Origin: Acidobacteriota bacterium
Lineage (GTDB): Bacteria; Acidobacteriota; Blastocatellia; RBC074
DNA: 64,000 bases
Reading direction: 5' to 3'
NCBI GenBank assembly: GCA_043718445.1
Contig: JAYSVR010000026.1
Location: 2,900-66,899, forward strand
The translations under genes were made by a program, and so were the position numbers. The notes under the pieces are model-generated. The model saw only the letters and a program-made list of their open reading frames with translations, made no database searches and had not been told where the DNA came from. Numbering within the stretch: the stretch's first letter is position 1; each line of letters begins with the position of its first letter. Below, piece after piece: positions 12,395-52,505 of this stretch.

Positions 12395-13279
12395 ATGCAC
12401 ATCGAAACTCTCAAAACTTTTTGCGACCTGATTGAAACCGGCAGTTTCTCGAAAGCCGCCCAACTCAATTTCGTTTCGCAATCCGCCGTGAGCCAACAAC
12501 TCAAAGCCCTCGAACAACGTTACGGCCAGCAACTCATCGAACGCGGCCACCGGCAAAGCCTCGCGCTGACCGAATCTGGCAAAATCTTTTACCGCGCCTG
12601 TCAGGAACTGCTCGAAAACTTTCGCCTGCTCGAAGAGCAAATGCGCCAGCCCGACGAATCAATCACTGGCACGCTCAAAGTGGCGACTGTTTACAGCATC
12701 GGCCTGCACGAGTTGCCGCCTTATGTGAAGCAGTTCATGAAAGCGCATCCGCAAGTGAAGGTGCATATCGAATACAGCCGCACCGACAAGGTTTATGAAG
12801 CCTGCCAAAACAACGCGATTGATTTCGGCATTGTGGCGCTGCCGTTGCGGCGTCCGAATCTCACGGTGATTCCGTTGCGGCAAGACAAACTCGTCATCGT
12901 TTGTGCGCCCGAACATCGGCTGGCGCGCAAACGCAAAGTCAGTTTCACGCAACTGGCAGGCGAAGATTTCATCGCGTTTGAGCGCGACATTCCTACGCGC
13001 AAGACGATTGACGGCTTGCTGAAACAACACAAAGTCGTAGTGAATCGGGTGATGGAATTCGACAACATCGAAACCCTCAAACGTTCGGTCGAAGTCGGAA
13101 TCGGCCTTTCGATCCTGCCTGAAACAGCCGTCGTCAACGAAGTCAAAAACGGTTTGCTCGCGCAATTGGATTTCAGTGAAGGCACGTTCACGCGCGCCAT
13201 CGGCATCATTCATCGGCGCGGACGTGTCTTCAGCGCAGCGGCGCGTGAGTTCGTGCAAATGCTGACGGCGGCGCGTTGA
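12395..13279 (+). CDS. LysR-family transcriptional regulator
   Basis: The N-terminal HTH is [43 protein letters not shown] 294-aa LysR substrate-binding fold follows. Confidence 0.85.
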
Positions 13280-13431
13280 CGCTGATGGACTGACACCTTA
13301 GACTGCGCGCGTTTTACATAAGCACTCATTCATCCGGCACGTTTCTAAAGCCGGAAAACATTTTCGAACAATTCGTCGGCAGTAGCTTTCTCAAAAAAGG
13401 AGTAGAAGGCGAAAGCGAAGTTATCTTTGTC

Positions 13432-14211
13432 TTGCGCCGCAACCTTATGGCTGAATCGAAAACTGCTTTGCAAAATCGTAGCTTTGGCGCGACTGAGCGG
13501 CGCGAATCATGGTGGACAGAAGTCTTGCCCATCATCATCGTGTTCGGCGGCTTCGGCATTTACGCGACGCTGCGTGCAATGGAAGGCGCACATTATGAAT
13601 GGGGGAATTATCTCTCGCCGTTCTATTCGCCGCTGATTGACCCCGAACATCATTGGCTGCCGAAATGGCTCTCACCCGCGTTGCTGATTCTCGGCGCGCC
13701 CCTGGGCTTTCGCACGACTTGTTACTATTACCGCAAGGCGTATTACCGCGCGTTTTTCATGTCGCCGCCTTCGTGCGCCGTGACAGGACGCGCGGCGGGC
13801 AAGTATTCAGGCGAACGCAAGTTCCCCTTCATCCTGCAAAACCTGCATCGTTACTTTTTGTATCTGGCGCTGATCTTCATCGTCATCTTGTGGTACGACG
13901 CGCTCAAGGCGTTCTTTTTCCAAGACGGCTTCGGCATTGGCGTAGGCTCACTGATTATGGTGCTTAACGTAGTGCTGCTGACGATGTATACGTTTTCCTG
14001 CCACTCGCTGCGGCATCTGGTCGGCGGCAAGCTCGATTGCTTTTCGTGCGAAGTCGCGGGCGGCACGCGCTACAAAACGTGGAAAGGCGTCAGTTCGCTC
14101 AATGAACGCCACATGCAATTCGCATGGGCGAGCCTGCTGTCGGTAGGCTTGTGCGATTTGTATATCACGCTGGTTTCGCGCGGCTATATTACTGATTTAC
14201 GGTTGTTGTGA
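13432..14211 (+). CDS. sdhC: Succinate dehydrogenase/fumarate reductase membrane anchor, cytochrome b subunit (type B, single anchor with about 5 TM helices)
   Basis: Polytopic membrane protein. It lies immediately upstream of the flavoprotein and Fe-S subunits. The start is alternatively at MAESK (13447). Confidence 0.65.
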   Translation: MRRNLMAESKTALQNRSFGATERRESWWTEVLPIIIVFGGFGIYATLRAMEGAHYEWGNYLSPFYSPLIDPEHHWLPKWLSPALLILGAPLGFRTTCYYYRKAYYRAFFMSPPSCAVTGRAAGKYSGERKFPFILQNLHRYFLYLALIFIVILWYDALKAFFFQDGFGIGVGSLIMVLNVVLLTMYTFSCHSLRHLVGGKLDCFSCEVAGGTRYKTWKGVSSLNERHMQFAWASLLSVGLCDLYITLVSRGYITDLRLL

Positions 14212-14390
14212 TGACAAAAGAACCATCTGCAAACGATACGACGCGCGAGATTGACGACAGCGATGACTGGACGGAAGAAGATATGCGCGAGTTTACCGCG
14301 TATTCGATGCGTTGCTTTATTGAAAGGGAAGAAGCGGAAGAAGCTGCCTTTCTTGCTACTGAACTCACACCCCAAGCTGAAAACCAATGA
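14211..14390 (+). CDS. Small, highly acidic protein (59 aa) encoded between sdhC and sdhA
   Basis: MTKEPSANDTTREIDDSDDWTEEDMREFTAYSM... The ATG overlaps the sdhC stop codon (TGATG) and its stop overlaps the sdhA start (ATGA). Translational coupling on both sides argues it is expressed. Confidence 0.35.
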   Translation: MTKEPSANDTTREIDDSDDWTEEDMREFTAYSMRCFIEREEAEEAAFLATELTPQAENQ

Positions 14391-16111
14391 GTGAAAAATA
14401 CGAAACACACGAACACGATGTCTTAATCATCGGAGCAGGCGGCGCGGGTTTGCGCGCTACGATTGCGGCCCTGGCGCAAGGCGCTTCGGTCGGCGTCGTA
14501 TGCAAATCGTTGCTCGGCAAGGCGCACACCGTCATGGCTGAAGGCGGCGTAGCGGCGGCGATGGGTAACGTAGACAGCGCCGACGGCTGGCAGCCGCACT
14601 TCCGCGACACGATGCGCGGCGGCAAGTTCATGAACAACTGGCGCATGGCGCAGCTTCACGCGCAGGAAGCGCCCGACCGCGTGCGCGAGCTTGAGCATTG
14701 GGGCGCGCTGTTTGATCGCACGCCCGACGGAAACATTTTGCAGCGCGCGTTCGGCGGACACACTTATAAACGGCTCTGCCACGTAGGCGACCGCACCGGG
14801 CTTGAGATGATTCGTACGCTGCAAGATCGCGGCGTCGCGCTCGGCGTAGACGTTTTCATGGAATGCACAGTCACCAAGCTGTTGAAAGACGGCGACCGCG
14901 TCGTTGGAGCCTTTGCCTATTGGCGCGAGACGGGGCGCTTCGTAGTTTTCAAAGCCAAAGCCATCGTGGTTTGCACCGGCGGCATCGGCAAGTCTTATCG
15001 CGTCACGTCGAACTCGTGGGAATACACCGGCGACGGACAGGCGCTGGCGTTCGAGGCCGGAGCCGAATTGAAAGACATGGAATTCGTTCAGTTCCATCCG
15101 ACCGGCATGGTCTGGCCGCCGGGCGTCGCGGGCATTCTCGTAACCGAAGCCGTGCGCGGCGAAGGTGGCATCCTGCGCAACAGCAAGGGCGAACGCTTCA
15201 TGGAAAAATACGACCCGAAGCGGATGGAGCTTTCGACGCGCGACGTGGTGGCGCGTTCGATTTACACCGAAGTCAAAGAGGGACGCGGTACGCCACACGG
15301 CGGAGCCTTCTTAGACATTTCGCATAAGCCCGGCGATTACGTGAAAAAGAAGCTGCCGAGCATGTATCACCAATTCAAAGAACTCGCCGACGTAGACATC
15401 ACCAAAGAGCCGATGGAAGTCGGCCCGACGTGCCATTACGTTATGGGCGGCATTAACGTTGACGCCGAGACCGCCGCCGCAACGATTCCTGGTTTATACG
15501 CGGCGGGCGAAGCAGCAGCGGGCTTGCACGGCGCGAATCGTTTGGGCGGCAATTCGCTGTCTGACTTGTTGGTCTTCGGTCGGCGCGCGGGCGAAGCGGC
15601 GGCGCAATACGCGAACAGTTCAAGCGCGGTGACGATTGATAATGCGCAAGTCGAAGCCGCCGCGCGCGAGATGCTCGAACCCTTTGAACGCACGACGGGC
15701 GAGTCGCCATATGACGTTCACGACGAGTTGCAGGATTCGATGCAAAGCCTCGTCGGCATCTTCCGCAACGAAGAAGACATGACGAAAGGCTTGGCGAAAC
15801 TCGAAGAGTTCAAAGAGCGCGCGAAAAAAGTGCGCGTCGTCGGTTCGCGTATGTTCAACCCCGGCTGGCATCTGGCGCGCGACCTGCAAAACATGCTGCT
15901 GACTTCTGAAGCGGTTGCGCTGGCAGCGCGTGAACGCAAAGAGTCGCGCGGTGCACACGCCCGTATAGATTTTGAAAAGCTCGATGATGAAAAGTGGGGC
16001 AAGCAGCACAACATCATCAAGCGCAACGGAGACGGTTCGCTGAATCTTTCACAACGACCGATTTTCGAATTGCCTGACGAACTCAAACAGGTTTTGGAAG
16101 AAGATAAATAA
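14387..16111 (+). CDS. sdhA: Succinate dehydrogenase/fumarate reductase flavoprotein subunit
   Basis: FAD-binding motif VLIIGAGGAGLRA. Further evidence includes the RDTMRGG motif, a HPTG-type covalent FAD His region and 574-aa length. Confidence 0.9.
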   Translation: MSEKYETHEHDVLIIGAGGAGLRATIAALAQGASVGVVCKSLLGKAHTVMAEGGVAAAMGNVDSADGWQPHFRDTMRGGKFMNNWRMAQLHAQEAPDRVRELEHWGALFDRTPDGNILQRAFGGHTYKRLCHVGDRTGLEMIRTLQDRGVALGVDVFMECTVTKLLKDGDRVVGAFAYWRETGRFVVFKAKAIVVCTGGIGKSYRVTSNSWEYTGDGQALAFEAGAELKDMEFVQFHPTGMVWPPGVAGILVTEAVRGEGGILRNSKGERFMEKYDPKRMELSTRDVVARSIYTEVKEGRGTPHGGAFLDISHKPGDYVKKKLPSMYHQFKELADVDITKEPMEVGPTCHYVMGGINVDAETAAATIPGLYAAGEAAAGLHGANRLGGNSLSDLLVFGRRAGEAAAQYANSSSAVTIDNAQVEAAAREMLEPFERTTGESPYDVHDELQDSMQSLVGIFRNEEDMTKGLAKLEEFKERAKKVRVVGSRMFNPGWHLARDLQNMLLTSEAVALAARERKESRGAHARIDFEKLDDEKWGKQHNIIKRNGDGSLNLSQRPIFELPDELKQVLEEDK

Positions 16112-16135
16112 AGGCAAGAGACTCAGTGGCAAACG

Positions 16136-16230
16136 GCATTCTCAATTCCCCATTCTCAATTCTTATACAGAAGAAACATTGGCTTACAGTTTTCTCTTTA
16201 AAAGAATTGAGAATGGGGAATTGAGAATGC
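16136..16230. repeat. Perfect 29-bp-arm inverted repeat (gcattctcaattccccattctcaattctt / aagaattgagaatggggaattgagaatgc) with a 37-nt loop, between sdhA and sdhB
   Basis: Read directly from the sequence. Each arm also contains the direct repeat attctcaatt twice. Confidence 0.6.
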
Positions 16231-16267
16231 CGATGCCGCAATGGTTCGGTTTTAAGGAGACGCATAA

Positions 16268-17008
16268 ATGGCGGAAGCTACACTCAGAATTTATCGTGGC
16301 GATAAAGACGGGGGCGAACACGTCGAATATAAAGTGCCGGTCGCGCCGGGCATGGTCGTGCTCGACGCTTTGCATTACGTGCAAGGCCATCAAGCGCCTG
16401 ACTTGGCGGTGCGCTGGAATTGCAAGGCCGCGAAATGCGGCTCGTGTTCGGGCGAAGTCAATGGCCATCCGAAGCTGATGTGCAAGACGCGGCTCGACGA
16501 TTTGCCGCTCGATCAGCCGATCACGATCAATCCGTTGAAGAGCTTCCCGATCATCAAAGACCTCGTGACCGACGTGTCGTGGAATTACAAGATCAACAAA
16601 AAGATTCCGCCTTTCACGCCCGCGCCCAACACCGAATGGAAGATGCAGCAGGAAGACATTGACCGCGTGCAGGAGTTCCGCAAGTGCATCGAATGCTTCC
16701 TTTGCCAAAACGTATGCCACGTGCTGCGCGACCACGAGAAGAAAGAAGATTTCGGCGGCCCGCGCTTTTTCGTGCGCATTGCCGGACTCGAAATGCATCC
16801 GCTCGACACCGTGTCGCGCACCGCGTTGCTCAAAGACGAACTGGGCATCGGCCTGTGCAACATCACCAAGTGTTGCACAGAGGTTTGCCCTGAAGACATT
16901 CATATCACCGATAACGCGATCATTCCGTTGAAAGAGCGCGTGGTAGATGAGTTTTACGATCCGATCCAAATGATCTGGCGCAAGCTGACGGGCAAAGGCA
17001 AAAAGTAA
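16268..17008 (+). CDS. sdhB: Succinate dehydrogenase/fumarate reductase iron-sulfur subunit
   Basis: 2Fe-2S motif CKAAKCGSCSGEVNG. Cys clusters CIECFLCQNVC and CNITKCCTEVCP follow. Confidence 0.9.
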   Translation: MAEATLRIYRGDKDGGEHVEYKVPVAPGMVVLDALHYVQGHQAPDLAVRWNCKAAKCGSCSGEVNGHPKLMCKTRLDDLPLDQPITINPLKSFPIIKDLVTDVSWNYKINKKIPPFTPAPNTEWKMQQEDIDRVQEFRKCIECFLCQNVCHVLRDHEKKEDFGGPRFFVRIAGLEMHPLDTVSRTALLKDELGIGLCNITKCCTEVCPEDIHITDNAIIPLKERVVDEFYDPIQMIWRKLTGKGKK

Positions 17009-17023
17009 AATGCGGAGGTTGCG

Positions 17024-17521
17024 ATGTTCGAGCTAAAACCCATCCATCCCGAATCTATCGAACAGGCTTTGGAAAAAGCGCATCACTATCGCTTGCTCAA
17101 CGAACCCGGCGAAGCCGAAAGCATTTGCCTCGACGTACTCGAAATCGAGCCGGAGCATCAAGGCGCGTTGGTTACGTTGCTGCTGGCGCTGACTGATCGT
17201 ATGGCGAAAGGCTATGCAACGGGCGCGCGTCAGGCCAAAGAGGTTTTGCCGCGCCTCACAGACGAATACCAACGGCATTATTACGCTGGACTGATTTGCG
17301 AACGGCAAGGCAAAGTGCGTTTGCAACAAGGCGGGCCGGGCGCTACGCACGATGCTTACGAATGGTTGCGCGAAGCGATGGCGGCTTACGAAAAAGCCGA
17401 GCCGCTCAAACCCGCTGGCAACGACGACGTGATCTTGCGCTGGAATGCCTGTGCGCGAAACATCATGCGCAACCAACTCTCAGCACGCCCCACCGACAAC
17501 GCAGCACAATTTCTGGAATAA
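17024..17521 (+). CDS. Conserved hypothetical helical protein (165 aa) located 16 bp after sdhB
   Basis: ORF with no recognisable catalytic motifs. Its position suggests co-transcription with sdhCAB. Confidence 0.45.
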   Translation: MFELKPIHPESIEQALEKAHHYRLLNEPGEAESICLDVLEIEPEHQGALVTLLLALTDRMAKGYATGARQAKEVLPRLTDEYQRHYYAGLICERQGKVRLQQGGPGATHDAYEWLREAMAAYEKAEPLKPAGNDDVILRWNACARNIMRNQLSARPTDNAAQFLE

Positions 17522-17530
17522 ATCTTCGCT

Positions 17531-18898
17531 ATGCCTTCTTACCTTCGAGCGTGGCTCGTGGCGTTATGCGTCACGGCGGGCGGTGGGCTGATGTCAGCCT
17601 TCGCGCAATCCAAACCGAACATTCTCATCCTTTACGCCGACGACTGGCGGCACGATACGCTGGGCATTGCGGGGCATCCTATCGTCAAGACGCCGCACCT
17701 CGATCAACTGGCGCGTGAAGGCGTTCGCTTCACGCGCGCACACGTGACGACTTCGATTTGCGGCGTCAGCCGCGCGACGTTGTTTACCGGACAATGGATG
17801 TCGCGCCACGGCAACCCCGCGTTCGAGATGTTCAAGACGCCGTTTAGCGAAACCTATCCCGGCTTGTTGCGCGCGAACGGTTATTACACCGGTCACATTG
17901 GCAAGTGGCACAACGGCAAGTTTCCCGCCAAGCATTTCGATTTCGGACGTTCGTATGCGGGAACGCATTTCATCAAGCAACCAGACGGCTCTACGATTCA
18001 CGTCACACAGAAAAACGAAAACGACGCGCTCGAATTTTTACGCGCGCGTCCGAAAGAAAAACCCTTTGTGCTGACGCTTGCGTTTTTCGCTACGCACGCC
18101 GAAGACCAAAATCCGAAGCAGTATTTGTATCAACCACAAAACGCCGCGCTCTATCAAAACGTAACCATCCCGATTCCGAAAACCGCAGGCGACGAATACT
18201 TCAAACTGCTGCCGCCCTTCATCGCCAACGAAAAAAACGAAGGCCGCAATCGCTGGCACTGGCGTTTCGATACGCCGGAAAAATATCAGGAATACATGAA
18301 GGCTTATTACCGGTTGGCGACTGAAGTGGACTCAACCGCAGGGCGCGTTTTAGCTGAACTCAAAGCCCAGGGTTTAGACGACAACACGCTCGTGATTTTC
18401 ACGACTGACAACGGATACTTTCACGGCGAACACGGACTGGCTGACAAATGGTATCCCTATCAAGAATCCATTCGCGTACCGTTGATCGTGCGCGACCCGC
18501 GTATGCCGAAAACCAAACGCGGAGCGATCAATGATGCTTTGGTTTTGAATGTAGATACCGCGCCAACGATTCTTTCCGCCGCTGGCGTCAAGGCTCCGGC
18601 GCGCATGCAAGGCCGAGATTTCGCTGAATTGTATTTGAAAGCAAAGACGAAAGACTGGCGGCAGGATTATTTTTATGAACACGCGACGATTCGCAACATT
18701 GATTTCATCCCTTCGTCTGAGGCGCTGGTGCAACGCGACGTGAAATATCTTTACTGGCCTGATTTCAAATACGAAGAGTTGTTCGATCTCAACCGCGATC
18801 CACACGAAACGCGCAATCTTATCAACGATGCGAAATACGCGAAGCGATTGACAGCCTTGCGACAACGTTTTGCCATCTTAAAAGCCGCTGCGAAATGA
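17531..18898 (+). CDS. Sulfatase-family hydrolase (alkaline-phosphatase superfamily) with signal peptide and a noncanonical C-G-V-S-R formylglycine motif
   Basis: [15 protein letters not shown]...[17 protein letters not shown]...[11 protein letters not shown] are sulfatase hallmarks. Val replaces the usual Pro in the motif. Confidence 0.75.
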
Positions 18899-18931
18899 TT
18901 GCTTCGCTAATCGCCGAAGGGCTTTCGCCAC

Positions 18932-18996
18932 AAAAAAGCACAGGATTCACAAAACTTATTCTTTCAAAACGTTTTGTGAATCCTGTGCTTTTTGTT
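18932..18996. terminator. Bidirectional rho-independent terminator between the convergent sulfatase (+) and 19017-19406 (-) genes
   Basis: aaaaaagcacaggattcacaaaac ... gttttgtgaatcctgtgctttttgtt forms a stem of about 19 bp. It is flanked by an A-run on one side and a T-run on the other. Confidence 0.7.
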
Positions 18997-19016
18997 CGGA
19001 ACAGCAACCTTCTTGC

Positions 19017-19997: not shown

Positions 19998-20477
19998 TTA
20001 TTGCGTTAACGGTTTCGTAAGATCAGCCAGATTGGCATCGGCGGCACGCTGCAAGTCAAGGGGCGCTAAGATCATTTGCAAGCCACGTTGTCCGGCACTG
20101 ACGCTGACAAGGTCGTGCAAAATCGCCGTTTCGTCAAGGTAGACGGGGAACTTTTTCTTCGTGCCCAGGGGCGATACACCGCCGCGAATGTAACCAGTCA
20201 GCCCCTGCAATTCTTTGACGGCGACGAGTTCGATTTTCTTGTTTCCGGTGGCGGCGGCAAACTTCTTCAAATCCAGTTCGGTATCCGCAGGAACGCACGC
20301 CATCACCACGCCAGTCTTGTCGCCGCGCGCAACCAGCGTTTTGAACGTAGCCTCCGGCGGCATATTCACCTTGCGCGCCACGGTGATGGCATCAAGTTCA
20401 TCATCGTTGACTTCATAAGCGCGCAGTTCATAAACGATCTTGAGTTGATCGAGCATACGCGCCGCAATCGTTTTCAT
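19998..20477 (-). CDS. ybaK: Cys-tRNA(Pro)/Cys-tRNA(Cys) deacylase YbaK
   Basis: 159 aa with the YbaK/ProX motif [11 protein letters not shown]. Confidence 0.8.
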
Positions 20478-20497
20478 CGGTTGTCAGTTGTCGGTTG

Positions 20498-22451
20498 TCA
20501 GTTGTGCGCAGCCTTTGCCGCTTCGGTTTCAAGAGCTTTTTCCCAAGCCGTGTATAGTTCTTGCACCTGCATTTCGATGCGCTGGTATTGCGCGTTGAGT
20601 TCCGTCAGTTTGACGTGGTCACGCGCGACGGCCTCAGTAGCCATTTCAGCGAACAGCTCGTCTCGTTGCGCTTCTATCACCTGAATCTGCGCTTCGAGTT
20701 CGGCGGCTTTTGAATTCTGGTTGCGCGACTTGTTCGACTTATTCGACTTGGTTGGAGGCTTGGTGACAACGACCGGCTTGGCAGCCGCCGCTTTTTGCGC
20801 TTCGCGTTCGGCGCGTGCCTGCTCGGTCAGGCGAGCTTGCGCTTCGGTCAGTGCGCGGTGATGCGCTTCATAAAACTCTGTGTAACCACCATCGAAGTAT
20901 TCCGCGCTGCCAGCAGAAAAATACAAAATCTTGGTGCAGATGCGGTCTAGAAAATAACGGTCGTGCGAGACCGTGATGATCGTGCCGTCGTATTCGTTGA
21001 GCGCCTCTTCGAGTGTTTCGCACGAAGCGATGTCAAGATGGTTTGTCGGTTCGTCGAGCAACAACACATTGACGCGCGAATAGATCAGCTTGGCTAACGC
21101 GAGTCGGCCTTTCTCACCACCTGACAATGACGAGACCGATTTGAATACATCGTCGCCGCTGAACAGGAAGCGTCCGAGAAAGCCGCGCAATTCGCCGTCG
21201 GCGACGCCGTGGCCCGCGATGGTGCGCAACTCACCAAGTACGTCGTTGCGGTCATCTACCGTATGCAGCCGTTGATCGTAATAGCCTGTCGCAACGCCGC
21301 TGCCCCAACGCGATTCGCCCGCCAGCGCAGCCTGTTGACCAAGCAAGGTACGCAACAACGTCGTCTTGCCCGTACCGTTGCCGCCGATGATCCCGAGGCG
21401 TTCGCCGCGTCTGAGCAACAAATTCAAATCACTCGCCAACACCTTCGTGCCGTAACCGACCGCGAGGTCTTCGAGCATCAACACCTGATCGCCGGTGCGC
21501 GCCGTCGGCTTGAGTTTGAAATTCGCCGTGTCGAGTTGATTGACGCTTTCGAGGCGTTCGATTTTTTCGAGTTGGGTGCGCCGCGACTTGGCCTGCTTGG
21601 TTTTCTGTCCGGCGAGATTGCGGCGAATGAAATCTTCGGTTTTGGCGATCATGCCTTGCTGCAATTCATAAGCACGTTGTTGCTGTTCGCGGCGCTCTTC
21701 GCGCTGTTCGAGGTATGCGGTGTAATTGCCTTTGTAACTGTCAACCTTGCCGAATTCGAGATCGAGTACGCGCGTGACGGTGTGATCGAGAAAGAACCGG
21801 TCGTGCGAGATGATGAGATAAGCCGACGGATATTTTGAAAGATATTCTTCCAGCCATTCGACCGCGTCTACGTCAAGGTGGTTCGTCGGTTCGTCAAGCA
21901 ACAGAATGTCAGGTTCGAGCAACAGCAAACGCGCCAGGCCGAGACGATTCTTTTCGCCGCCCGATAGGCTTTCGGCGCGCTTGTCGAATTCGTCTTTAGC
22001 AAAACCTAAACCCAACAACACGCCCTCGGCGCGCGAGTGATAGGTGAATCCGCCGCCGTCTTCATAGGCGTGTTGCGCGTCGCTGTATTCATGCATCACG
22101 CGGTCGAGTTCATCGCCTTGCGCTTCGCCCATCGTGTGTTCGAGTTCGCGCATCTGGGTTTCGAGCGCGATCAATGGACTGAACACTTGCAACGCGGCGT
22201 CGAGTACGGTGTCGGCTCCAGCAAAATCTACGTGTTGCGCGAGTACTCCGACGCGGAAGCCTTTCATCCGTTCGAGTTCGCCGTTGTCATGCGACTCGGT
22301 ACCGTTAATCAGCCGAAAGATCGTGGTCTTGCCCGCGCCGTTGCGCCCGACCAGACCGACGTGTTCGCCGGGATTGAGTTGAAAGCTGACACCTTTGAGT
22401 ACGTCCTGGGTGCCGTAAGATTTGGTTACATCTGCGAGACGAAAAAGCATA
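20498..22451 (-). CDS. ABC-F family ATPase (two ABC cassettes plus a Lys/Ala-rich C-terminal coiled coil; Uup/EttA-like)
   Basis: Two Walker A motifs (GRNGAGKTT, GGNGTGKTT) and two LSGGEK signatures. The track start at 22507 gives an implausible N-terminus, so the start is more likely ATG 22449-22451 (MLFRLADVTKSYG). Confidence 0.85.
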
Positions 22452-22562
22452 AGTAGTGAAACGGAAAGTGAAGGAGAGAACGCAAGAAGGAGAGACCGAA
22501 AAGACAAAATACCGCGATTGTCTCTCGGCCTCTCCTTCTCTCAGTCTTAACTTTCTTGCTGT

Positions 22563-23720
22563 CTATTTTTTAGGTGTAGCTGCCGCTGCCGCTGCCGGTG
22601 AAGCTGCTGCCGCCGCAGGCGCTGCGTTCATCACCGGACGCAACACGCCGAAGCTGTTCGGATTGCCCAGCGTTGACGTAGCGAGAACGTTGTCAATTTT
22701 CGCTTCGTCCCGGGCGCGGGTGAGCAAAGCCGCGTTCAACAACTGACGGCGTTGATTCAGGATGTAATCCGAAATCTGTTTGCGAACTTCGGCATCTTCC
22801 ACTGTCAATTGGCGGCGTTCGGTACGCTTTTGCGTGAGCTTGAAAATATGAAAGCGTCCGCGTTGATCTTTCAACGGGCCGATGCGGTCGCCTTCGCTCA
22901 TTGCCATGAGTTTGGCTCCGAGGTCGGCGGGTAATCCGGCTTGCGCGAGTCCGGCAAATTGCGTTTGCGGAATGAAGGGCAGATCGCCCGCTTGCAACGC
23001 GCTTTGGTCTTCTGACTGGCCGCGCGCCAACGTAGCGAAATCGGTTCCGCTGGCTAACCGACGACTGATGTCGGTGATCTTGGCCTGCGCGGCGACCGGG
23101 TCTTTCGCGTCGTTTTTCATGCCGTTGTCACCGGGGTCAACAATGATGTCGGCCACCGCGACGCCGGGTTCGGCAATGAACTGTTGCGGATTGGATTTGA
23201 AAAAGTCTGTGATCTCACGGTCTTGCACTTTCAACGTCGCACCGAGCTTGTCTTGCATCTTCTGAATCGCCATCTGTTTGCGAATGTCAGCGCGTACGCC
23301 CTCTTGCGTCTGGCCGCTGGTTTTCAACTGCTTGTCGAACTCTTCTTCCGTCATCCCCGCTTCCTGCTTTTGCTTCTGAATGAACTCGTTGATCTCTTGA
23401 TCGGTCGGATTGATGCCGTCTTTCTGTGCGCGTTGAAACAGCACTTCCTGCTGAATCAATTCGTCCAGCACCTGCAATCGCGCCGTAGCGAGTTCGAGCG
23501 GAGACAGCGAATTCTCAGCCGCCTGGCGTTTGGTCAGGCGGTCAACTTCTTCAACGGTGATGGTCGTACCGTTGACGGTCGCTGCGGCTTCTTTGCCGCC
23601 GCTGCTCGTGGTTGAAGTCGAAGCGCCGCCGCTGCCGCCGCAAGCGGAAAGCAAAAGCGACAGACTCAATAAGCCAATCATAAAATTGGCGGTGGGGATG
23701 GCAATGAGATTTTTTCTCAC
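22563..23720 (-). CDS. SurA/PrsA-like peptidyl-prolyl isomerase lipoprotein (parvulin-type)
   Basis: Lipobox LLLSACGG. A SurA-N-like helical region is followed by a parvulin-like segment. The C-terminal tail is Ala-rich. Confidence 0.6.
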   Translation of the reverse strand: MRKNLIAIPTANFMIGLLSLSLLLSACGGSGGASTSTTSSGGKEAAATVNGTTITVEEVDRLTKRQAAENSLSPLELATARLQVLDELIQQEVLFQRAQKDGINPTDQEINEFIQKQKQEAGMTEEEFDKQLKTSGQTQEGVRADIRKQMAIQKMQDKLGATLKVQDREITDFFKSNPQQFIAEPGVAVADIIVDPGDNGMKNDAKDPVAAQAKITDISRRLASGTDFATLARGQSEDQSALQAGDLPFIPQTQFAGLAQAGLPADLGAKLMAMSEGDRIGPLKDQRGRFHIFKLTQKRTERRQLTVEDAEVRKQISDYILNQRRQLLNAALLTRARDEAKIDNVLATSTLGNPNSFGVLRPVMNAAPAAAAASPAAAAAATPKK

Positions 23721-23747
23721 GGTGTTATTTAGCTCCTTAAAAATGGG

Positions 23748-23813
23748 TAGGACAGGTTCGTAACCTGTCCGCTTTCCGCTGACGGTAGGACAGGTTACGA
23801 ACCTGTCCTACCC
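23748..23813. repeat. Tandem pair of REP-like hairpins (ggacaggtt-cgt-aacctgtcc and ggtaggacaggtt-acg-aacctgtcctacc), probable ridA terminator
   Basis: Read from the sequence. The second hairpin is followed on the minus strand by ttttt. The same gtagg.caggtt core recurs at 40654. Confidence 0.5.
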
Positions 23814-23820
23814 AACTACG

Positions 23821-24195
23821 TTAGGCCAACGCGATCACTTCGATTTCGACTTTCACATCACGCGGCAAGCGCGCGACTTCAACGGTTGAACGCGCCGGTT
23901 TCGACGCGTCAAAAAACTTGGCGTAAACCTCATTCAACGCGGCGAAATCATTCATGTCCTTGATAAACACCGTCGTCTTGACGACGCGACTCAACGACGA
24001 ACCAGCCGCTTCGAGTACGGCTTGCGCGTTCAGCAGCACGCGTTCGGTTTGGGCTTTGATGTCGCCCTCGACAACTTGCATCGTCGCGGGGTCGAGCGGA
24101 ATTTGCCCCGAACAAAAGATCAGGCCGTTGGCCTTGATCGCTTGCGAATAAGGGCCGATAGCCGCCGGAGCCTGCGCGGTCTGAATGATTTCCAT
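23821..24195 (-). CDS. ridA: RidA/YjgF family reactive-intermediate deaminase
   Basis: [36 protein letters not shown] is the canonical RidA N-terminus, with a C-terminal R..VEV motif. The start is the internal ATG at 24193-24195. Confidence 0.8.
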
Positions 24196-24343
24196 CGCGT
24201 GATGTGTCCTTCGGTAATTGCGTTGGGGTTTGAAATTAAGGCGCGGATTGTACGGAGCCATTGCGCGGAAAGCAAAGCCGCGAATTGACTCACTTAATAA
24301 CTACGAGAAGGCGAAGGATTGATATTGCCAATGGGCCAACTGG

Positions 24344-28259: not shown

Positions 28260-29324
28260 TCAGTGTTTTCCGTTCGCCGCGCCCCGCGCAGGCACGTGAG
28301 CACGTAACCAGCGATCCAACGCCGCTTTGCTTTCCAGCGCGACTGGTTGTTTTAAGTCAATCAGTTGATTCAGCAAAAGCTCGACACTCTCTAACGAGAG
28401 CCGTCCCAGCCGTTTGGTAGTAGCTTCGTTCAACGAACCCAGACGTTGTGTTAAAAGCAATAGCACGATTTCGAGCTTGCCTTCGCGTTTACCTTTCTCC
28501 AAGCCTTTCTCCAAGCCTTTCTCCAGGCCTTCCGCCAAACCTTTCTCCAGACCTTCCTCCCTACCTTTCGCCAGTCCTTCTTGTTTCCAAGTCGTTGCAT
28601 AAGAGGTTGCATATTGCATAACAGTTTCTTTCTCCTTCGGTTCAAAACAATCTACTTCTGTTTCAAATTCGGTGGTCTGTGCGGGAGTCAACGGCAGATA
28701 AGCGTCAATGAAATGCCACAACGGCCACCGCTTCTTTTCAGGTAATTGCAATCGGGCCAGCATGCGCAAACAAGCGGCGCGAACTTTCGGACGTTCTTTC
28801 GGTTCGACTCCCATTTTCGCCATCAAGGCGCTCGCCACTGGATTGTCGCGTTGCAAATAGTCGCGCCAGTCAAGTCGGTTTAATTGAATCGTGGCGAAGT
28901 TGAATTCCAGCACACGCCGATCAGGAAACTCAACTTTATACTGCCCCGGTTCCGCCGCGCGCGGGCTGTCCCACGAAAACAGCGCAATCGGATAAACCGG
29001 CAGATCGTGTTTATAGCTCTGCACGGCGAAGTAATAAAACATCCGTTTGGGCGACCAGCCGCGCTTGCCCGATTGCACTTCAGTGTGAATCAGGAAATAA
29101 GTCGGCTGTCCGCGCAAGCGCGCCTTGACCAACAGATCAACCGCGCGCCGTTCGTTTGAGGTAATTTCGCCGAAACTTTCCTGTTCAATAAACTCAAGGG
29201 AATTCACATCAAGGTGGCGCACCACTTCGGGCAAAAACAATTCGAGGAAGTCTACGAAACAAACGCGCAGCACTTCCTTGAAAAGCTGATCGTGTTCGAT
29301 GGGTTGGCGCTTGGGTTGTTTCAT
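28260..29324 (-). CDS. Rpn-family (YhgA-like) recombination-promoting nuclease / putative transposase with a C-terminal DUF4351-like tail
   Basis: The N-terminus HDQLFKEVL...FLIHTEVQS is the PD-(D/E)XK YhgA-like core. The C-terminus has an EGLEKGL tandem repeat encoded by a 12-nt periodic DNA repeat at 28489-28570. The start ATG overlaps the upstream enolase stop codon (ATGA). Confidence 0.65.
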   Translation of the reverse strand: MKQPKRQPIEHDQLFKEVLRVCFVDFLELFLPEVVRHLDVNSLEFIEQESFGEITSNERRAVDLLVKARLRGQPTYFLIHTEVQSGKRGWSPKRMFYYFAVQSYKHDLPVYPIALFSWDSPRAAEPGQYKVEFPDRRVLEFNFATIQLNRLDWRDYLQRDNPVASALMAKMGVEPKERPKVRAACLRMLARLQLPEKKRWPLWHFIDAYLPLTPAQTTEFETEVDCFEPKEKETVMQYATSYATTWKQEGLAKGREEGLEKGLAEGLEKGLEKGLEKGKREGKLEIVLLLLTQRLGSLNEATTKRLGRLSLESVELLLNQLIDLKQPVALESKAALDRWLRAHVPARGAANGKH

Positions 29325-30781
29325 TTTGGCTTTATCACTCCGAGGCCGTATCCGTTGAGCGTCGCCGTACGCAACATTCCATCCTTGATGTCGAACAAAC
29401 CGGGGAAATCTTTTTTCCACTTTTCATTCGCCGACGGCACATATTGTCTCGCGTTGCCTTCGAGTCCGCCCACGCCGGGCACGTGCGCGGCGATGGAGCA
29501 CGAATGAATGAACGACGCGCCGGGGCAAGTCAGGTCTTGCACACACAACGACATTTTGTATTTCTGTGCCGCCGCTGCCATCAGCACCGCGTGGCTTTGT
29601 CCTTTGCAGGCCTTGAGCGCGACGCCGGTGTAGCCCATCTCGCGCGCCAGCAGCAGCGATTCCAAATCGGTCAGTGATTCGTCAATCACGACGGGGCGCA
29701 GCTTCGCGGCCTCGTGCATTACGTTTGCACGGTCGGCGCGCAGGTCGCGTTGTGTGGGCTGTTCGATATATTGAATGCGCGCAAAGCCCTGCGGCGCAGC
29801 CTCTTTCACGCGGCGCAAGAGTTCGAGCAAGTAAGCGACGTTGTCGCAGCGTTCGTTGAAATCAAGCAAGTACTTGCAGCGCCGCTGCTGGGCGGCAGAA
29901 AGATTTTCATCTACGATGCGGTCAATTTTGAGGATGCGTTGCGTATCGGCTTCGCGGTCGCCGCCGTTGAGCTTGATCTTGAAATGCGTGAGGCCATTGA
30001 AACGAATCCAATCGGGCAAGGTTTCAGGCAAGCCATCGCCGACTCGTTGCTTCACGTCACTTTCGAGCAAAGGGTCAGACGCGCCGACTGAATGAAACAG
30101 CGGAATGCGCGGCACGGGTTGCTTGAGCAAAAAGCGATCAAGATATGCGCCTTTGAAATCAGCACCTAGATAATGCGACAAATCACGCGGCAACAAATCG
30201 CGTCCATAGGTTTGCCAACTGCTGCGGCGATGCACTTTGCCGAAAGCATCGTGAAGGGCTGCGTCAAAAGCGCTCGCCGTCACCAGCACACAAAGTTTGG
30301 GAATCGGGGCGGCAAGTTTCAGTTCGCGCGAAACTTCAGCGGCGGCTTTCAGAAATTCAGGTTCAAGCGCAACGAAAGCATCCAGCGGATGTCCGGGTTC
30401 TTTATAACCGTTGATGATTTTGTTGAGGCGTTCAGCTAGCGTTTTCATTGCGCCGAGCGTCGTGTCGTAACTCATTGGCGCTACGCCTTTCGGAGTCGGA
30501 AACGCCCACTGATTACCCATCGTCATCGAACCGAACCCGCGCGCAGTGCGTCCGTCAACGGTGGTGACGACGCAATTGACGTTGAGCAAGGTCACGCGAT
30601 CTACGCTGCGTCCGCCAAACATATAGGGAGTTCGGTACAAATGATCTTCATAGCCGAAAGCGATTTCTTCGATGCGAATGCCAGTGGGGCGCGACAGCTT
30701 GAGGAAAGGCGCAAGCAAAGGCGCGCTAGTTACCGTTTGCAAAAATCGGCGGCGTGATAAGACATATCTCAAGTTAGCCAT
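29321..30781 (-). CDS. Enolase-superfamily (mandelate racemase/muconate lactonizing enzyme-like) protein, TAT-exported
   Basis: Twin-arginine signal LSRRRFLQTVTSAPL. MR/MLE-type barrel with KxK and acidic ligands. Confidence 0.65.
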   Translation of the reverse strand: MANLRYVLSRRRFLQTVTSAPLLAPFLKLSRPTGIRIEEIAFGYEDHLYRTPYMFGGRSVDRVTLLNVNCVVTTVDGRTARGFGSMTMGNQWAFPTPKGVAPMSYDTTLGAMKTLAERLNKIINGYKEPGHPLDAFVALEPEFLKAAAEVSRELKLAAPIPKLCVLVTASAFDAALHDAFGKVHRRSSWQTYGRDLLPRDLSHYLGADFKGAYLDRFLLKQPVPRIPLFHSVGASDPLLESDVKQRVGDGLPETLPDWIRFNGLTHFKIKLNGGDREADTQRILKIDRIVDENLSAAQQRRCKYLLDFNERCDNVAYLLELLRRVKEAAPQGFARIQYIEQPTQRDLRADRANVMHEAAKLRPVVIDESLTDLESLLLAREMGYTGVALKACKGQSHAVLMAAAAQKYKMSLCVQDLTCPGASFIHSCSIAAHVPGVGGLEGNARQYVPSANEKWKKDFPGLFDIKDGMLRTATLNGYGLGVIKPK

Positions 30782-37260: not shown

Positions 37261-37367
37261 ACGTAGCGCAGACTTCAGTCTGTGACCCGTATCGCGGACT
37301 TTAGTCCGCCAGTCATGCGCAGACTAAAGTCCGCGATACGGGTCACAGACTGAAGTCTGCGCTACGT
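37261..37367. repeat. Perfect palindrome: 46-bp arms (37261-37306 / 37322-37367) around a 15-nt loop, filling the intergenic region upstream of the MetE-like gene
   Basis: The arms are exact reverse complements. Each arm contains the smaller palindromes cagacttcagtctg and gcggactttagtccgc. Confidence 0.65.
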
Positions 37368-48420: not shown

Positions 48421-48500
48421 GTCTCTAAAACAACAGGTAGTGACGACTTCAGTTGTTCCGTGCATTCGTGGTATCGGAACGACTGAAGTCGTCATTACCT
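48421..48500 (-). terminator. Rho-independent terminator downstream of the PepSY gene (25-bp stem with 2 mismatches, then a U-rich tract on the minus strand)
   Basis: aggtagtgacgacttcagttgttccg ... cggaacgactgaagtcgtcattacct, then guuguuuua on the minus-strand transcript. Confidence 0.5.
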
Positions 48501-50883: not shown

Positions 50884-51583
50884 TCTGATTGTCTCCCCCC
50901 TCGGTATATTCGACGTATTCGACGCCTAACTCAGCCAGCTTTGCACGCAAGCCTTGAATGTTGACACTATATTCACCGGCCTTTAAGCGCGCGCGAACTT
51001 GCTCTTCTTTCTCAACTCGTTCTTGCCCCAGCCGTGCGACTTCGGCGGCGTGCGCGCGTGGGACGATGACGACACCGTCTACGTCACCGACAACGACATC
51101 ACCGGGGTTCACCTGCGCGCCTGCGCAAACGATGGGCACGTTCACCGAACCGGGCACCACTTTCAGCGGCCCTTGCGCTGAAATTGCTTTGGCCCACACG
51201 GGAAAATTCATCGTCGTGAGATCGGCTACATCGCGTATGCCTGCATCCAAGATCAAGCCGCGTATGCCGTGAGTCTGACACGAAGTCCCCATCAGTTCGC
51301 CGAACATGCCGCAGGTCGAAGGTGAAGTCGTTGCCACGATTAACACGTCGCCCGGCTGACAAACTTCAATCGCGGCGTGAATCATCATGTTGTCGCCGGG
51401 GTGGCATAAAACTGTTATGGCAGAACCAGCCAGCCGCGCCGTCGGATAGATCGGACGCATATAAGGTTGCAGCAAGCCCGTGCGATTTTGCGCCTCTGAG
51501 ACCGTGGCGGAACCTTGCGCGCCCAGCGCCTTGATAAGTTCAGCATCGGCGCGCTGAATGTTTCTGACGACTACGTTTTTCAT
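50876..51583 (-). CDS. RraA-like 4-hydroxy-4-methyl-2-oxoglutarate / 4-carboxy-4-hydroxy-2-oxoadipate aldolase
   Basis: RraA/MenG fold (GDVLIV, GIRGLILDAGIRD). The start MKNVVVRN is ATGA-coupled to the upstream gene. Confidence 0.75.
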   Translation of the reverse strand: MKNVVVRNIQRADAELIKALGAQGSATVSEAQNRTGLLQPYMRPIYPTARLAGSAITVLCHPGDNMMIHAAIEVCQPGDVLIVATTSPSTCGMFGELMGTSCQTHGIRGLILDAGIRDVADLTTMNFPVWAKAISAQGPLKVVPGSVNVPIVCAGAQVNPGDVVVGDVDGVVIVPRAHAAEVARLGQERVEKEEQVRARLKAGEYSVNIQGLRAKLAELGVEYVEYTEGGDNQNG

Positions 51584-52308
51584 GAAATCGGCTCCATCGT
51601 GACTTGCGGATAAACGCGTTGAAAGGCTTCGGCGTAAACAATCGCGGGATTGCCCGAATTGCGTCCGCCCTGCGTGCCGCGCCGTTTGGCAACGTCGGTG
51701 TAGTAATTCCAGAGATGCGTTTGCGCATCCATGCAATGCATCGCTTTGACCTTCGTTTCAAACACCAGCGTGATGTCCAAAATCACATCCGGCTTGAACT
51801 CGCACATCTCGGTTTGATGCGGCTCGAAATAAAACACGGGCGGAGCGCCCAGATGTTTGTGTTCGCTGGGATAACCCATTGCTTGAGCATAAATGCGCGC
51901 ATTCATCGTGAGTTTAGAAGTCTCGACGTGATCGCCGTTGTAAGGGTCAATCGGCGTATGCGTCATCACGCACGTTGGTTGATAACTGCGAAATTCCTGC
52001 ACGAGTTCTTCGGTCAGTTGCGGCGTCACGCCCAACGGATAATCGCCCGCATTAAAGCAGCGAATCTCTGCACCCAATGTTTCAGCGGCCTTGACGGCTT
52101 CGGCGTGGCGAATCTCTTTAACCTTTTCGATAGTCATGCCTTCTTTCTTCCACAGCCCTTGCGACTCGCCGCGTTCGCCATAAGACAAACACAGCACCCG
52201 CACCCGCGCGCCGCGCGCCGCATAAAGCGCAATGGCTCCGCCCGCGCGCCAGACGAAATCAGCCGCATGCGCGCTGACAACCAACAAACGTTCATTCTCC
52301 CAACTCAT
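51580..52308 (-). CDS. LmbE/PIG-L-like Zn-dependent enzyme (candidate 4-oxalomesaconate hydratase, GalB-like)
   Basis: PIG-L motif LLVVSAHADDFVW-like (AHAADFVW) and the HxxH region. The gene sits in the operon with the ring-cleavage dioxygenase and aldolase. Confidence 0.55.
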   Translation of the reverse strand: MSWENERLLVVSAHAADFVWRAGGAIALYAARGARVRVLCLSYGERGESQGLWKKEGMTIEKVKEIRHAEAVKAAETLGAEIRCFNAGDYPLGVTPQLTEELVQEFRSYQPTCVMTHTPIDPYNGDHVETSKLTMNARIYAQAMGYPSEHKHLGAPPVFYFEPHQTEMCEFKPDVILDITLVFETKVKAMHCMDAQTHLWNYYTDVAKRRGTQGGRNSGNPAIVYAEAFQRVYPQVTMEPIS

Positions 52309-52376
52309 TGCTATCCTCTCTCAAGTCTCAAATCTGAAATGTCAGTTTTCTTAGGAAATTGAATACTCGCTTTGGT

Positions 52377-52471
52377 TTGAGTGGGAATTCGCCACAAAGA
52401 AGCACATAAACCACAAAAGAAAAGAAAAATTTTGTGGCTCTTGTGCTTTTTTGCGGCGAATTCCCACTCAA
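52377..52471. repeat. Long imperfect inverted repeat (about 40-bp arms with about 6 mismatches, 11-nt A-rich loop) between the amidohydrolase and LmbE-like genes
   Basis: ttgagtgggaattcgccacaaagaagcacataaaccacaaaa ... ttttgtggctcttgtgcttttttgcggcgaattcccactcaa. Confidence 0.5.
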
Positions 52472-52505
52472 GTTAAAGGTAGAATTTAAATTTCCAAACA
52501 AGCTC

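Follow-up and report, generated by a model that had tools for sequence, protein, structure and literature searches.

A heptamer-repeat hairpin inserted between sdhA and sdhB of an Acidobacteriota bacterium, at a junction with several kinds of palindrome-bounded occupants

A long hairpin built from inverted heptamer repeats separates sdhA from sdhB in an Acidobacteriota MAG. Comparison with related loci shows its entry into an overlapping or abutting gene junction, which it places in the common ancestor of this lineage and those of two relatives, L121 and L205. To judge from the sequences compared, the same junction has been occupied by palindrome-bounded inserts at least six to eight separate times, some of them carrying a gene. 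All coordinates given below refer to the 64-kb stretch of DNA that was analysed (hereafter the window).

Results

The sdhA-sdhB spacer and its hairpin

The window encodes the sdhA/frdA flavoprotein subunit (574 aa; 14387-16111, + strand; Pfam PF00890, 3e-96, and PF02910, 8e-30) and the sdhB iron-sulfur subunit (246 aa; 16268-17008, + strand; Pfam PF13085 and PF13183; 100% identical to P0001). An exact-sequence look-up of this SdhB and of P0001 gave no recorded match, while SdhB homologues place the DNA in the Acidobacteriota, probably in class Blastocatellia to judge by the names of the nearest matches. The sdhA stop codon TAA ends at 16111 and the sdhB ATG begins at 16268, leaving a spacer of 156 nt (16112-16267), the length given in an earlier sequence-only reading of this DNA. 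That reading had also described a perfect inverted repeat with 29-bp arms at 16136-16230. The repeat is real, and its perfect arms measure 31 nt rather than 29, with CGGCATTCTCAATTCCCCATTCTCAATTCTT at 16134-16164, its exact complement at 16202-16232, and a 37-nt loop (16165-16201, + strand) between them. With mismatches, the repeat search extends the arms to 44 nt at 91% (left arm, 16134-16177; right arm, 16189-16232; both read on the + strand), and the terminal loop of this extended hairpin, as located by the repeat search and the RNA fold, is 11 nt long (16178-16188, + strand).

Within the arm, CATTCTCAATTC occurs twice at a spacing of 14 nt, which accounts for the twofold internal repetition reported earlier; the arm is better described as a run of four heptamers, an arrangement that belongs to a documented class. 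TRF assigned a period of 7 and 3.7-3.9 copies to each arm, so each arm consists of four degenerate heptamers: ATTCTCA (16138-16144), ATTCCCC (16145-16151), ATTCTCA (16152-16158) and ATTCTTA (16159-16165) on the left, with the complementary heptamers of the right arm spanning 16201-16228. The inverted repeat is far beyond chance. In shuffles, 0.00 matches to the 26-mer core were expected, and the spacer RNA has a dG of -74.6 kcal/mol compared with -33.1 ± 3.7 kcal/mol for shuffled sequences (z = -11.1; 0 of 200). Three other independent assemblies (L121 from NCBI, L122 from Logan and L205 from ENA) have orthologous hairpins at this junction, so the structure is not an assembly artefact.

The arms are set between two non-repeat flanks on the + strand. 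The 5' flank (16112-16133), delimited by alignment A1 and the MFE structure, is homologous in L121 and L205, and in the MFE structure it pairs partly with 16234-16246 as an extension of the outer stem. The 3' flank (16233-16267) supplies a new Shine-Dalgarno sequence, AAGGAG, at 16254-16259, 8 nt 5' of the sdhB ATG. This motif is conserved in L121 and L205, as is a block of the 3' flank, ATGGTTCGG.TTT.AGGAGAC, read from the invariant columns of A1. The insert has a GC content of 37%, compared with 55-59% in the flanking genes.

Scanning 13000-19000 for promoters and terminators gave no promoter candidate in the spacer and no terminator candidate at the hairpin. Unlike an intrinsic terminator, the stem (37% GC) is followed 3' by AUGCCGC and not by a U-tract. 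Two ORFs that cross the hairpin, one of 60 aa on the minus strand (16083-16265) and one of 99 aa starting with TTG (16179-16478), were dismissed as mechanical by-products of the palindrome or as overlapping sdhB. None of 4227 Rfam families reached its gathering threshold (best models 20-54 bits, against thresholds of 54-114), and the matches obtained for 15500-17000 at E ≤ 10 were solely to eukaryotic miRNA-precursor models, on both strands, as expected of generic matches to a long hairpin. A G-quadruplex or i-motif was also rejected, with one G/C run per arm (GGGG at 16216-16219 and its CCCC complement).

Neither another copy of the arm or of a 12-mer from it nor another ATTCTCA array was found in the 64-kb window, and no second copy of the element was found in the 225 fetched loci. 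Other long hairpins lie between co-directional genes of the window at 23744-23814, 37261-37367, 48435-48500 and 52344-52504, and other heptamer arrays at 20477-20505 (a single array) and 52319-52344. These hairpins and the 20477-20505 array largely fill the spacers between co-directional genes in which they lie, suggesting that the genome is generally rich in intercistronic palindromes.

Insertion into an abutting junction

The sdhA and sdhB genes are normally adjacent, as the sequence-only reading had assumed: 37 of the 68 sdhA-sdhB junctions that could be measured in relatives span no more than 35 nt. Comparing spacers among relatives, the check proposed with that reading, revealed empty, hairpin-bearing and gene-carrying states. 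The orthologous hairpin is found in L121/L122 (SdhB 98% identical) and L205 (97%), in spacers of 174 nt that share homology with the window in their non-repeat flanks, both 5' and 3'. L206 (95%) and L208 (93%) have an empty junction in which the stop and start codons overlap as TAATG; that of L124 (89%) is also empty, the two codons abutting as TAAATG. In all three, a GGAGGA Shine-Dalgarno sequence lies within the 3' end of sdhA, whereas the sdhA 3' end of the window has none. In L123 and L207 (both 94%), a gene of 128 aa separates the two sdh genes. Since sdhA and sdhB are normally adjacent, and since the nearest element-less relatives read TAATG or TAAATG, the spacer is an insertion.

In an NJ tree of sdhB DNA, the window and L121 group together and with L205 as a hairpin clade, the sister of which is the empty L206. 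L123, L207 and the empty L208 form a separate clade, and L124 falls outside both. By this topology, the empty state is ancestral, and the hairpin and the gene cassette are separate, recent gains. When the borders of the insert were compared with the empty sites (TAATG and TAAATG), no direct repeat of the kind left by target-site duplication was found.

Concerted change of the two arms

In alignment A1, in which covariation rests on three orthologous hairpins (window, L121 and L205), 7 pairs have changed on both sides, compared with 2.4 ± 1.2 in shuffles (0 of 500). In the same alignment 90% of cells are paired, a share that falls to 40-53% once partners are offset by 1-3 columns. The 37-bp stem of L205 is perfect, and all 3 + 3 differences between L205 and the window in the outer stem are mirrored changes of C-G to T-A; the stem of L121 has decayed to 81%. 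Divergence is 11% in the outer arms, 21-27% at sdhB third codon positions, 36-44% in the loop and 18-50% in the flanks. The heptamer unit itself varies among the orthologues (ATTCCCC vs. ATTTTCC vs. ATTCTTC).

The gene-carrying loci extend this pattern to repeat number. The L207 cassette has about 11 heptamers in its left arm and 13 in its right, and L123 has about 6 per arm, indicating that copy number has changed on both arms together. Across these comparisons the two arms are shown not to evolve independently. The pairing may have been kept either by selection on RNA or DNA structure or by templated correction of one arm from the other, which could act on the DNA palindrome with no role for RNA. 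Sense-strand G.U and A.C mismatches stand at 17:8, counted over non-independent loci, a slight and non-significant lean towards constraint on the RNA.

Gene cassettes and other occupants of the junction

The gene inserted in L123 and L207 belongs to PF05635, the '23S rRNA-intervening sequence protein' family (TIGR02436; E = 2e-40). Distant PF05635/TIGR02436 members, with 36% identity to that of L123, are present at the sdhA-sdhB junction of L195 and L199. The junction is occupied by TIGR04256 GxxExxY/PF13366 genes in L125, L127 and L131, and by a separate GxxExxY/PF13366 gene (40% identity) in L201. All of these PF05635 and GxxExxY genes are co-oriented with the operon. The cassettes reach from the sdhA stop to just before the sdhB start, and their ends are terminal inverted repeats of 21-97 nt with a period of 7-8, as in L123, with its inverted arrays of (TAGTCAG)n and (CTGACTA)n. 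L201 is the only cassette for which no flanking repeat was found. In L131, hairpins of the cassette's own repeat, devoid of an ORF, stand on both sides of the GxxExxY gene.

Occupants without a gene are also varied. L128 has an independent ORF-less heptamer hairpin at the junction (GGTCTTT/AAAGACC), and L142 and L203 have other palindromes there. Among the ORF-less spacers, those longer than 115 nt show strong structure in all but three cases (z = -4.4 to -10.8), and those of 50-95 nt do not. Different lineages and elements have different repeat units (ATTCTCA, GGTCTTT, TAGTCAG, ACGTTGA and others). The terminal inverted repeats of the window element form a long bracketing stem with the same architecture as in L123, L195, L199 and L125; in the architecture of its ends it matches the IVS cassettes that carry PF05635/TIGR02436 or GxxExxY genes.

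Cassettes of this design occur beyond the sdh operon. Of 17 PF05635 loci in viral contigs, roughly half of those that are distinct carry inverted flanks with a period of 7 or 8 and unrelated units (TAGTCTG, GGCTGTT, ACGTTGA and ACGTTCA); a scan of viral contigs for GxxExxY relatives found none. In a Clostridiales MAG (L031), a PF05635 gene (E = 1e-25) has 70-nt inverted-repeat flanks of ATTCTCA-type heptamers, in the same array polarity as the window hairpin. When the window and 120 array loci were searched for S23p with tblastn, L031 was the one match, and a weak one, indicating that (ATTCTCA)n arrays do not generally lie next to S23p genes, and tblastn found no PF05635 or GxxExxY gene in the 64-kb window. 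Since such a gene lies near 1 of 120 (ATTCTCA)n loci and the window holds none, descent of the window hairpin from a cassette is put forward as a hypothesis. No transposase gene was seen in the window or in any related locus. In the literature searched, only the Coxiella IVS paper (PMC4990558) describes such cassettes outside rRNA or with heptamer ends.

Membership in a class of inverted heptamer-repeat hairpins

Species-representative genomes were scanned with the arm-based pattern TTCTCAATTCNNNATTCTCAATTC, the NNN of which admits a plain 7-nt period, and more than 120 contigs matched, with about 0.3 expected by chance by our own arithmetic. The matched contigs come from Cyanobacteria, Bacteroidota, Acidobacteriota, Clostridia, Planctomycetota, Chloroflexota and others, and the matches inspected are mostly simple (ATTCTCA)n tandem arrays. 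An inverted partner lies within 700 nt in 29 of 120 (ATTCTCA)n loci, usually across a loop of 12-110 nt. The purine-rich arm comes first in 26 of these inverted pairs and the pyrimidine-rich arm in 3; the window hairpin, with its pyrimidine-rich arm first, has the minority polarity.

The STRR heptamers of Calothrix and Nostoc are related to inverted heptamer pairs. Heptameric SSRs are over-represented in bacterial intergenic DNA, which has been ascribed to polymerase slippage (PMC4692102). In the GGGAATC family of Xanthomonas, 70 of 186 arrays form convergent inverted pairs; the arrays are mostly flanked by co-directional genes, follow the upstream ORF at a mean distance of 28 nt and are for the most part transcribed, their function being unexplained (PMC4692102). 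Inverted heptamer pairs of Nostoc have the unit GGGGA(C/T)T (Rehm et al. 2015, PMC4692102), and heptanucleotides of Calothrix are mentioned in the same work. Geobacter metallireducens has paired heptanucleotide sites, one of them between proB and proA (PMC2700814), and direct repeats of TAACTGA occur in Beggiatoaceae, Cyanobacteria and Bacteroidetes (MacGregor 2015, PMC4679880).

The window hairpin has the features that define the inverted pairs. It contains at least two tandem 7-nt units per array (perfect or degenerate), its arrays are convergent and close enough to form a stem-loop, it is intergenic and near the 3' end of the upstream ORF (the stem begins 22 nt after the sdhA stop), and the genes on either side, sdhA and sdhB, are co-directional on the + strand. 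It lacks G-quadruplex potential, taken as at least four G3+ tracts. As far as sequence features define membership, the window hairpin is one of the inverted heptamer-repeat hairpins, a published but unexplained class.

Discussion

We lean towards reading the hairpin as an ORF-less, IVS-like palindromic insert that would be co-transcribed, would form a duplex cleaved by RNase III, and would be tolerated as a selfish or neutral passenger, with sdhB served by a Shine-Dalgarno sequence that came with the insert. Because neither a promoter nor a terminator is detectable in the spacer, the insert is presumably transcribed within the sdh mRNA, where it may fold into an RNA duplex of 31-44 bp. RNase III probably cuts such long dsRNA, by analogy with the Coxiella IVS and the H. 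influenzae hmw hairpin, and a cut there would divide the transcript into an sdhA part and an sdhB part, with remnants of the stem at the ends so created. Translation of sdhB would proceed from the new Shine-Dalgarno sequence of the 3' flank and not through coupling to sdhA. An RNA stability or processing element had been one suggestion of the sequence-only reading, and part of it stands: the stem has been kept by changes on both arms, and there are precedents for RNase III cleavage (PMC4990558, PMC12721329), although cleavage at this site would follow from them by analogy. On balance, we regard the insert as tolerated, whether selfish or neutral, and not as an adaptation of the sdh operon, a reading that fits better because the occupants of the junction are varied and unrelated.

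Four other explanations were weighed against this one. The palindrome could have grown locally, by heptamer slippage, inverted duplication and template-switch correction, as a neutral structure with neither mobility nor a role in RNA. Several features of the repeats agree with such an origin, which we nevertheless find unlikely: many bacteria have an excess of heptamer SSRs, put down to slippage (PMC4692102), copy number differs between close relatives, templated correction would be expected to give perfect arms whose differences mirror each other, and the comparison of G.U with A.C mismatches (17:8, over non-independent loci) is not significant. However, the ancestral spacer of 0 nt or overlap offers nothing to expand, the insert brings non-repeat flanks of 22 and 35 nt together with a new Shine-Dalgarno sequence, and the arms change about half as fast as third codon positions. 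The repeated gain of gene cassettes with similar end architecture at this junction argues for imported elements.

Import by a transposase acting in trans on terminal inverted repeats, as for a classical non-autonomous MITE, is distinctly unlikely. The insert does have inverted ends, a foreign base composition and a presence/absence polymorphism among close relatives. The proposal of a miniature inverted-repeat element, made in the sequence-only reading, is nevertheless not supported, given the lack of a second copy in 64 kb or in the 225 fetched loci, of a target-site duplication relative to the empty sites, and of an associated transposase gene at any of these loci. The arms, moreover, are degenerate SSRs with lineage-specific units rather than conserved transposase-binding ends, and their repeat copy number varies on both sides (L123 vs. 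L207). We also consider it very unlikely that the hairpin is an adaptation for regulating the operon from between its cistrons, whether as a stabiliser, an attenuator or a partial terminator, by adjusting the ratio of SdhC/A to SdhB in the manner of the malE-malF REP. Such a regulator would suit the very high stability of the hairpin, its position 22 nt past the sdhA stop, the conserved pairing and the six independent ORF-less palindromes at the junction of relatives, but most relatives have no hairpin at all there, and neither a U-tract nor a terminator call marks it. The ancestral stop/start overlap, typical of translational coupling, already permitted coupling and was removed by the insert, which tells against the earlier idea that the element balances subunit stoichiometry. 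Complex II needs SdhA and SdhB at 1:1, a further point against such a regulator. The occupants of the junction are unrelated and some have selfish-looking ORFs, so that a permissive site fits better than a selected function. We give hardly any credence to the four direct heptamers of each arm being sites for a DNA- or RNA-binding regulator. Their regular spacing and similar proposals for the TAACTGA repeats (PMC4679880) and the 'global regulator' sites of Geobacter (PMC2700814) speak for it; against it, pairing and not the unit sequence is conserved among orthologues, no candidate binding protein was found, and units repeated every 7 nt do not keep in register with the turns of the DNA helix.

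Beyond this locus, we tentatively propose, as something quite possible though short of probable, that heptamer hairpins, 23S IVSs, and PF05635 (S23p) and GxxExxY genes form one widespread class of palindrome-bounded 'intervening' elements. If so, these elements would parasitise highly expressed transcripts, riding the host promoter in sense orientation and landing in the gap from one stop codon to the following start or in rRNA helices that can be spared, and RNase III excision of their repeat-built stems would make them harmless. ORF-less hairpins would then be reduced forms of intervening elements, and the sdhA-sdhB junction of Acidobacteriota would be a natural system in which to follow the movement of such elements and their 7-nt-repeat ends. 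The proposal would tie together three long-standing puzzles: the over-representation of heptamer SSRs, the 23S IVSs with their S23p proteins, and the scattered GxxExxY/PD-(D/E)XK mini-genes.

Taken alone, the hairpin is one more case of the under-studied but documented inverted heptamer repeats, and its value is comparative. The junction offers empty, hairpin-only and gene-carrying states among lineages with at least 93% SdhB identity, and in it substitutions mirror each other across the stem and repeat number has grown in both arms in step. Annotators should avoid labelling spacers of this kind MITEs or regulators by default.

Comparison with known systems

REP/BIME and Correia/NEMIS elements are small intergenic palindromes that are co-transcribed with operons; some REP elements stabilise upstream mRNA, and Correia elements are cut by RNase III. 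These families have conserved sequences and high copy number, together with a dedicated RAYT transposase in the case of REP or TA target duplications in that of Correia. For the window element, no such trait was found.

The TAACTGA repeats resemble the window arrays in lying between co-directional genes, in their spread across phyla and in having an unexplained mechanism (PMC4679880). Their arrays often end right at the start codon, and the sets are direct repeats of a conserved unit, inverted in 1 of 170 sets (PMC4679880), in contrast to the inverted pair of the window; the single direct heptamer array at 20477-20505 has a TAACTGA-like arrangement. In the 5'-UTR of H. influenzae hmw1/hmw2, a heptamer SSR forms one arm of a hairpin that is cleaved by RNase III and affects expression and repeat variability (NAR 2025, PMC12721329). 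The other arm of the hmw hairpin is a G-rich non-repeat, whereas both arms of the window hairpin are repeat arrays, and the hmw site, in a 5'-UTR, serves phase variation, whereas that of the window is intercistronic in a housekeeping operon.

With the inverted SSR pairs of Xanthomonas and Nostoc, the window hairpin shares tandem 7-nt units that are degenerate and number about four per array, and an intergenic position between co-directional genes near the 3' end of the upstream ORF. The Xanthomonas and Nostoc arrays are often convergent and capable of forming a stem-loop; they are transcribed and vary between close relatives. The window unit, ATTCYYM, differs from these families in being AT-rich, with a single G4 run per arm and no G-quadruplex, and in coming from an Acidobacteriota MAG. 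For the Xanthomonas and Nostoc repeats there is no report of two-sided arm changes among orthologues or of IVS-protein cassettes at the same junction.

ORF-less IVSs exist in Salmonella. The 23S IVS of Coxiella burnetii contains an S23p ORF and tandem GACAGAT heptamers, with a 28-bp terminal stem (Warrier et al. 2016, PMC4990558), and RNase III cuts within this stem have been mapped by RACE; IVSs of Leptospira are cited in the same paper. The window element has no ORF (loop of 11-37 nt), unlike the Coxiella IVS, and no sequence similarity to any described IVS. Lying in the intercistronic spacer of an mRNA, between sdhA and sdhB, and not in helix 25 or 45 of 23S rRNA, it is IVS-like but not an rRNA IVS. 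The likeness lies in a long terminal inverted repeat that forms a stem with tandem heptamers, in the sense orientation within a highly expressed transcript, and in the 23S IVS protein family itself, which is found with repeat-built ends at the sdhA-sdhB junction of L123, L207, L195 and L199.

Small genes at the sdhA–sdhB junction of relatives

Among the relatives compared at the sdhA–sdhB junction, four loci carry a gene of the 23S rRNA intervening sequence (IVS) protein family (PF05635/TIGR02436) at exactly this site, in each case co-oriented with the operon (L123:2492-3000, L207:631-1223, L195:2489-3000 and L199:268-789). Each of these genes is flanked on both sides by inverted arrays of 7–8-nt repeats, and the arrays reach from the sdhA stop codon to the sdhB ATG or to just before it. 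The number of heptamers varies between cassettes, with both arms in L207 containing about twice as many as in L123.

The same junction is occupied in four further loci by a TIGR04256 (GxxExxY, PD-(D/E)XK) mini-gene (L125:607-1101, L127:1-500, L131:1-707 and L201:1-507). Sequence comparison indicates that at least two independent events placed GxxExxY mini-genes here, with 40% identity between their genes. In L125, L127 and L131, the mini-genes have inverted ends of the CACGGAG type, and in L131 each side of the gene is a complete ORF-less hairpin built from this same repeat. A third type of small gene was seen in the junction of other Acidobacteriota (L126, L136, L161 and L165), where the sdhA–sdhB spacers measure 434–524 nt; it encodes ~128 aa with a weak match to DUF3291, and a remnant of it is found in L156.

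Polarity and drift of ATTCTCA-type arrays

Across the loci with (ATTCTCA)n arrays collected from species-representative genomes of many phyla (L001–L120), inverted array pairs are strongly biased in polarity: the purine-rich arm, (GAGAATT)n, comes first in 26 loci and the pyrimidine-rich arm in 3. This 26:3 bias could mean that most ATTCTCA-type hairpins are junctions of adjacent elements rather than elements that have lost their ORF. The sdhA–sdhB hairpin of the window has its pyrimidine-rich arm first, as in the minority of three loci. Along the long heptamer tracts of four loci (L004, L018, L028 and L108), the unit changes gradually, for example from ATTTTGC through ATTCTGC, ATTCTCA and ATTCTCC to ATTCCCC, so that the sequence mutates while the 7-nt period stays.

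Other repeats and small features of the window

Two further hairpins lie between co-directional minus-strand genes, at 37261-37367 (49-nt arms, 98%) and 48435-48500 (26-nt arms, 92%), both containing nested sub-palindromes around a common core, GACTTCAGTC / GACTTTAGTC. With at most one mismatch, this core has 12 matches in the window vs. 2.6 expected, and it may therefore represent a REP-like family. A perfect inverted repeat with 27-nt arms (23744-23814), each arm itself palindromic (GGACAGGTT-CGT-AACCTGTCC), takes up the spacer that separates two minus-strand ORFs (22563-23720 and 23821-24261). Another spacer with a minus-strand ORF on each side (51580-52308 and 52506-53429) is likewise filled (52319-52504), by a degenerate TCTCAAA heptamer array (52319-52344) and an adjoining hairpin with 75-nt arms that are 76% complementary.

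Just past the sulfatase gene (17531-18898), a hairpin with 28-nt arms (18933-18993), bordered by an A-run on one side and a T-run on the other, looks like a bidirectional intrinsic terminator. The 12/24/36-nt tandem repeat ACCTTTCTCCAA, with ~7 copies at 28490-28580, lies within minus-strand ORF 28260-29420 and is probably a coding repeat. An acidic 60-aa ORF without any Pfam match (14208-14390) bridges two genes, overlapping the end of the one for a putative membrane subunit (13432-14211) and the beginning of sdhA; at this position a 70-aa gene is called in L208, a relative with an empty sdhA–sdhB junction, whereas in L121, which carries an orthologous hairpin, the spacer here is only 21 nt long.

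One heptamer array, GTTGTCA/GTTGTCG ×4 (TGACAAC on the coding strand), stands alone with no inverted partner. It is located at 20477-20505, directly upstream of the ATG of a 159-aa gene (19998-20477) that is tRNA_edit-like by synteny with L121, and extends to the end of the upstream ORF 20498-22507. This placement resembles that of the TAACTGA repeats of Beggiatoaceae, which have been described just upstream of start codons.
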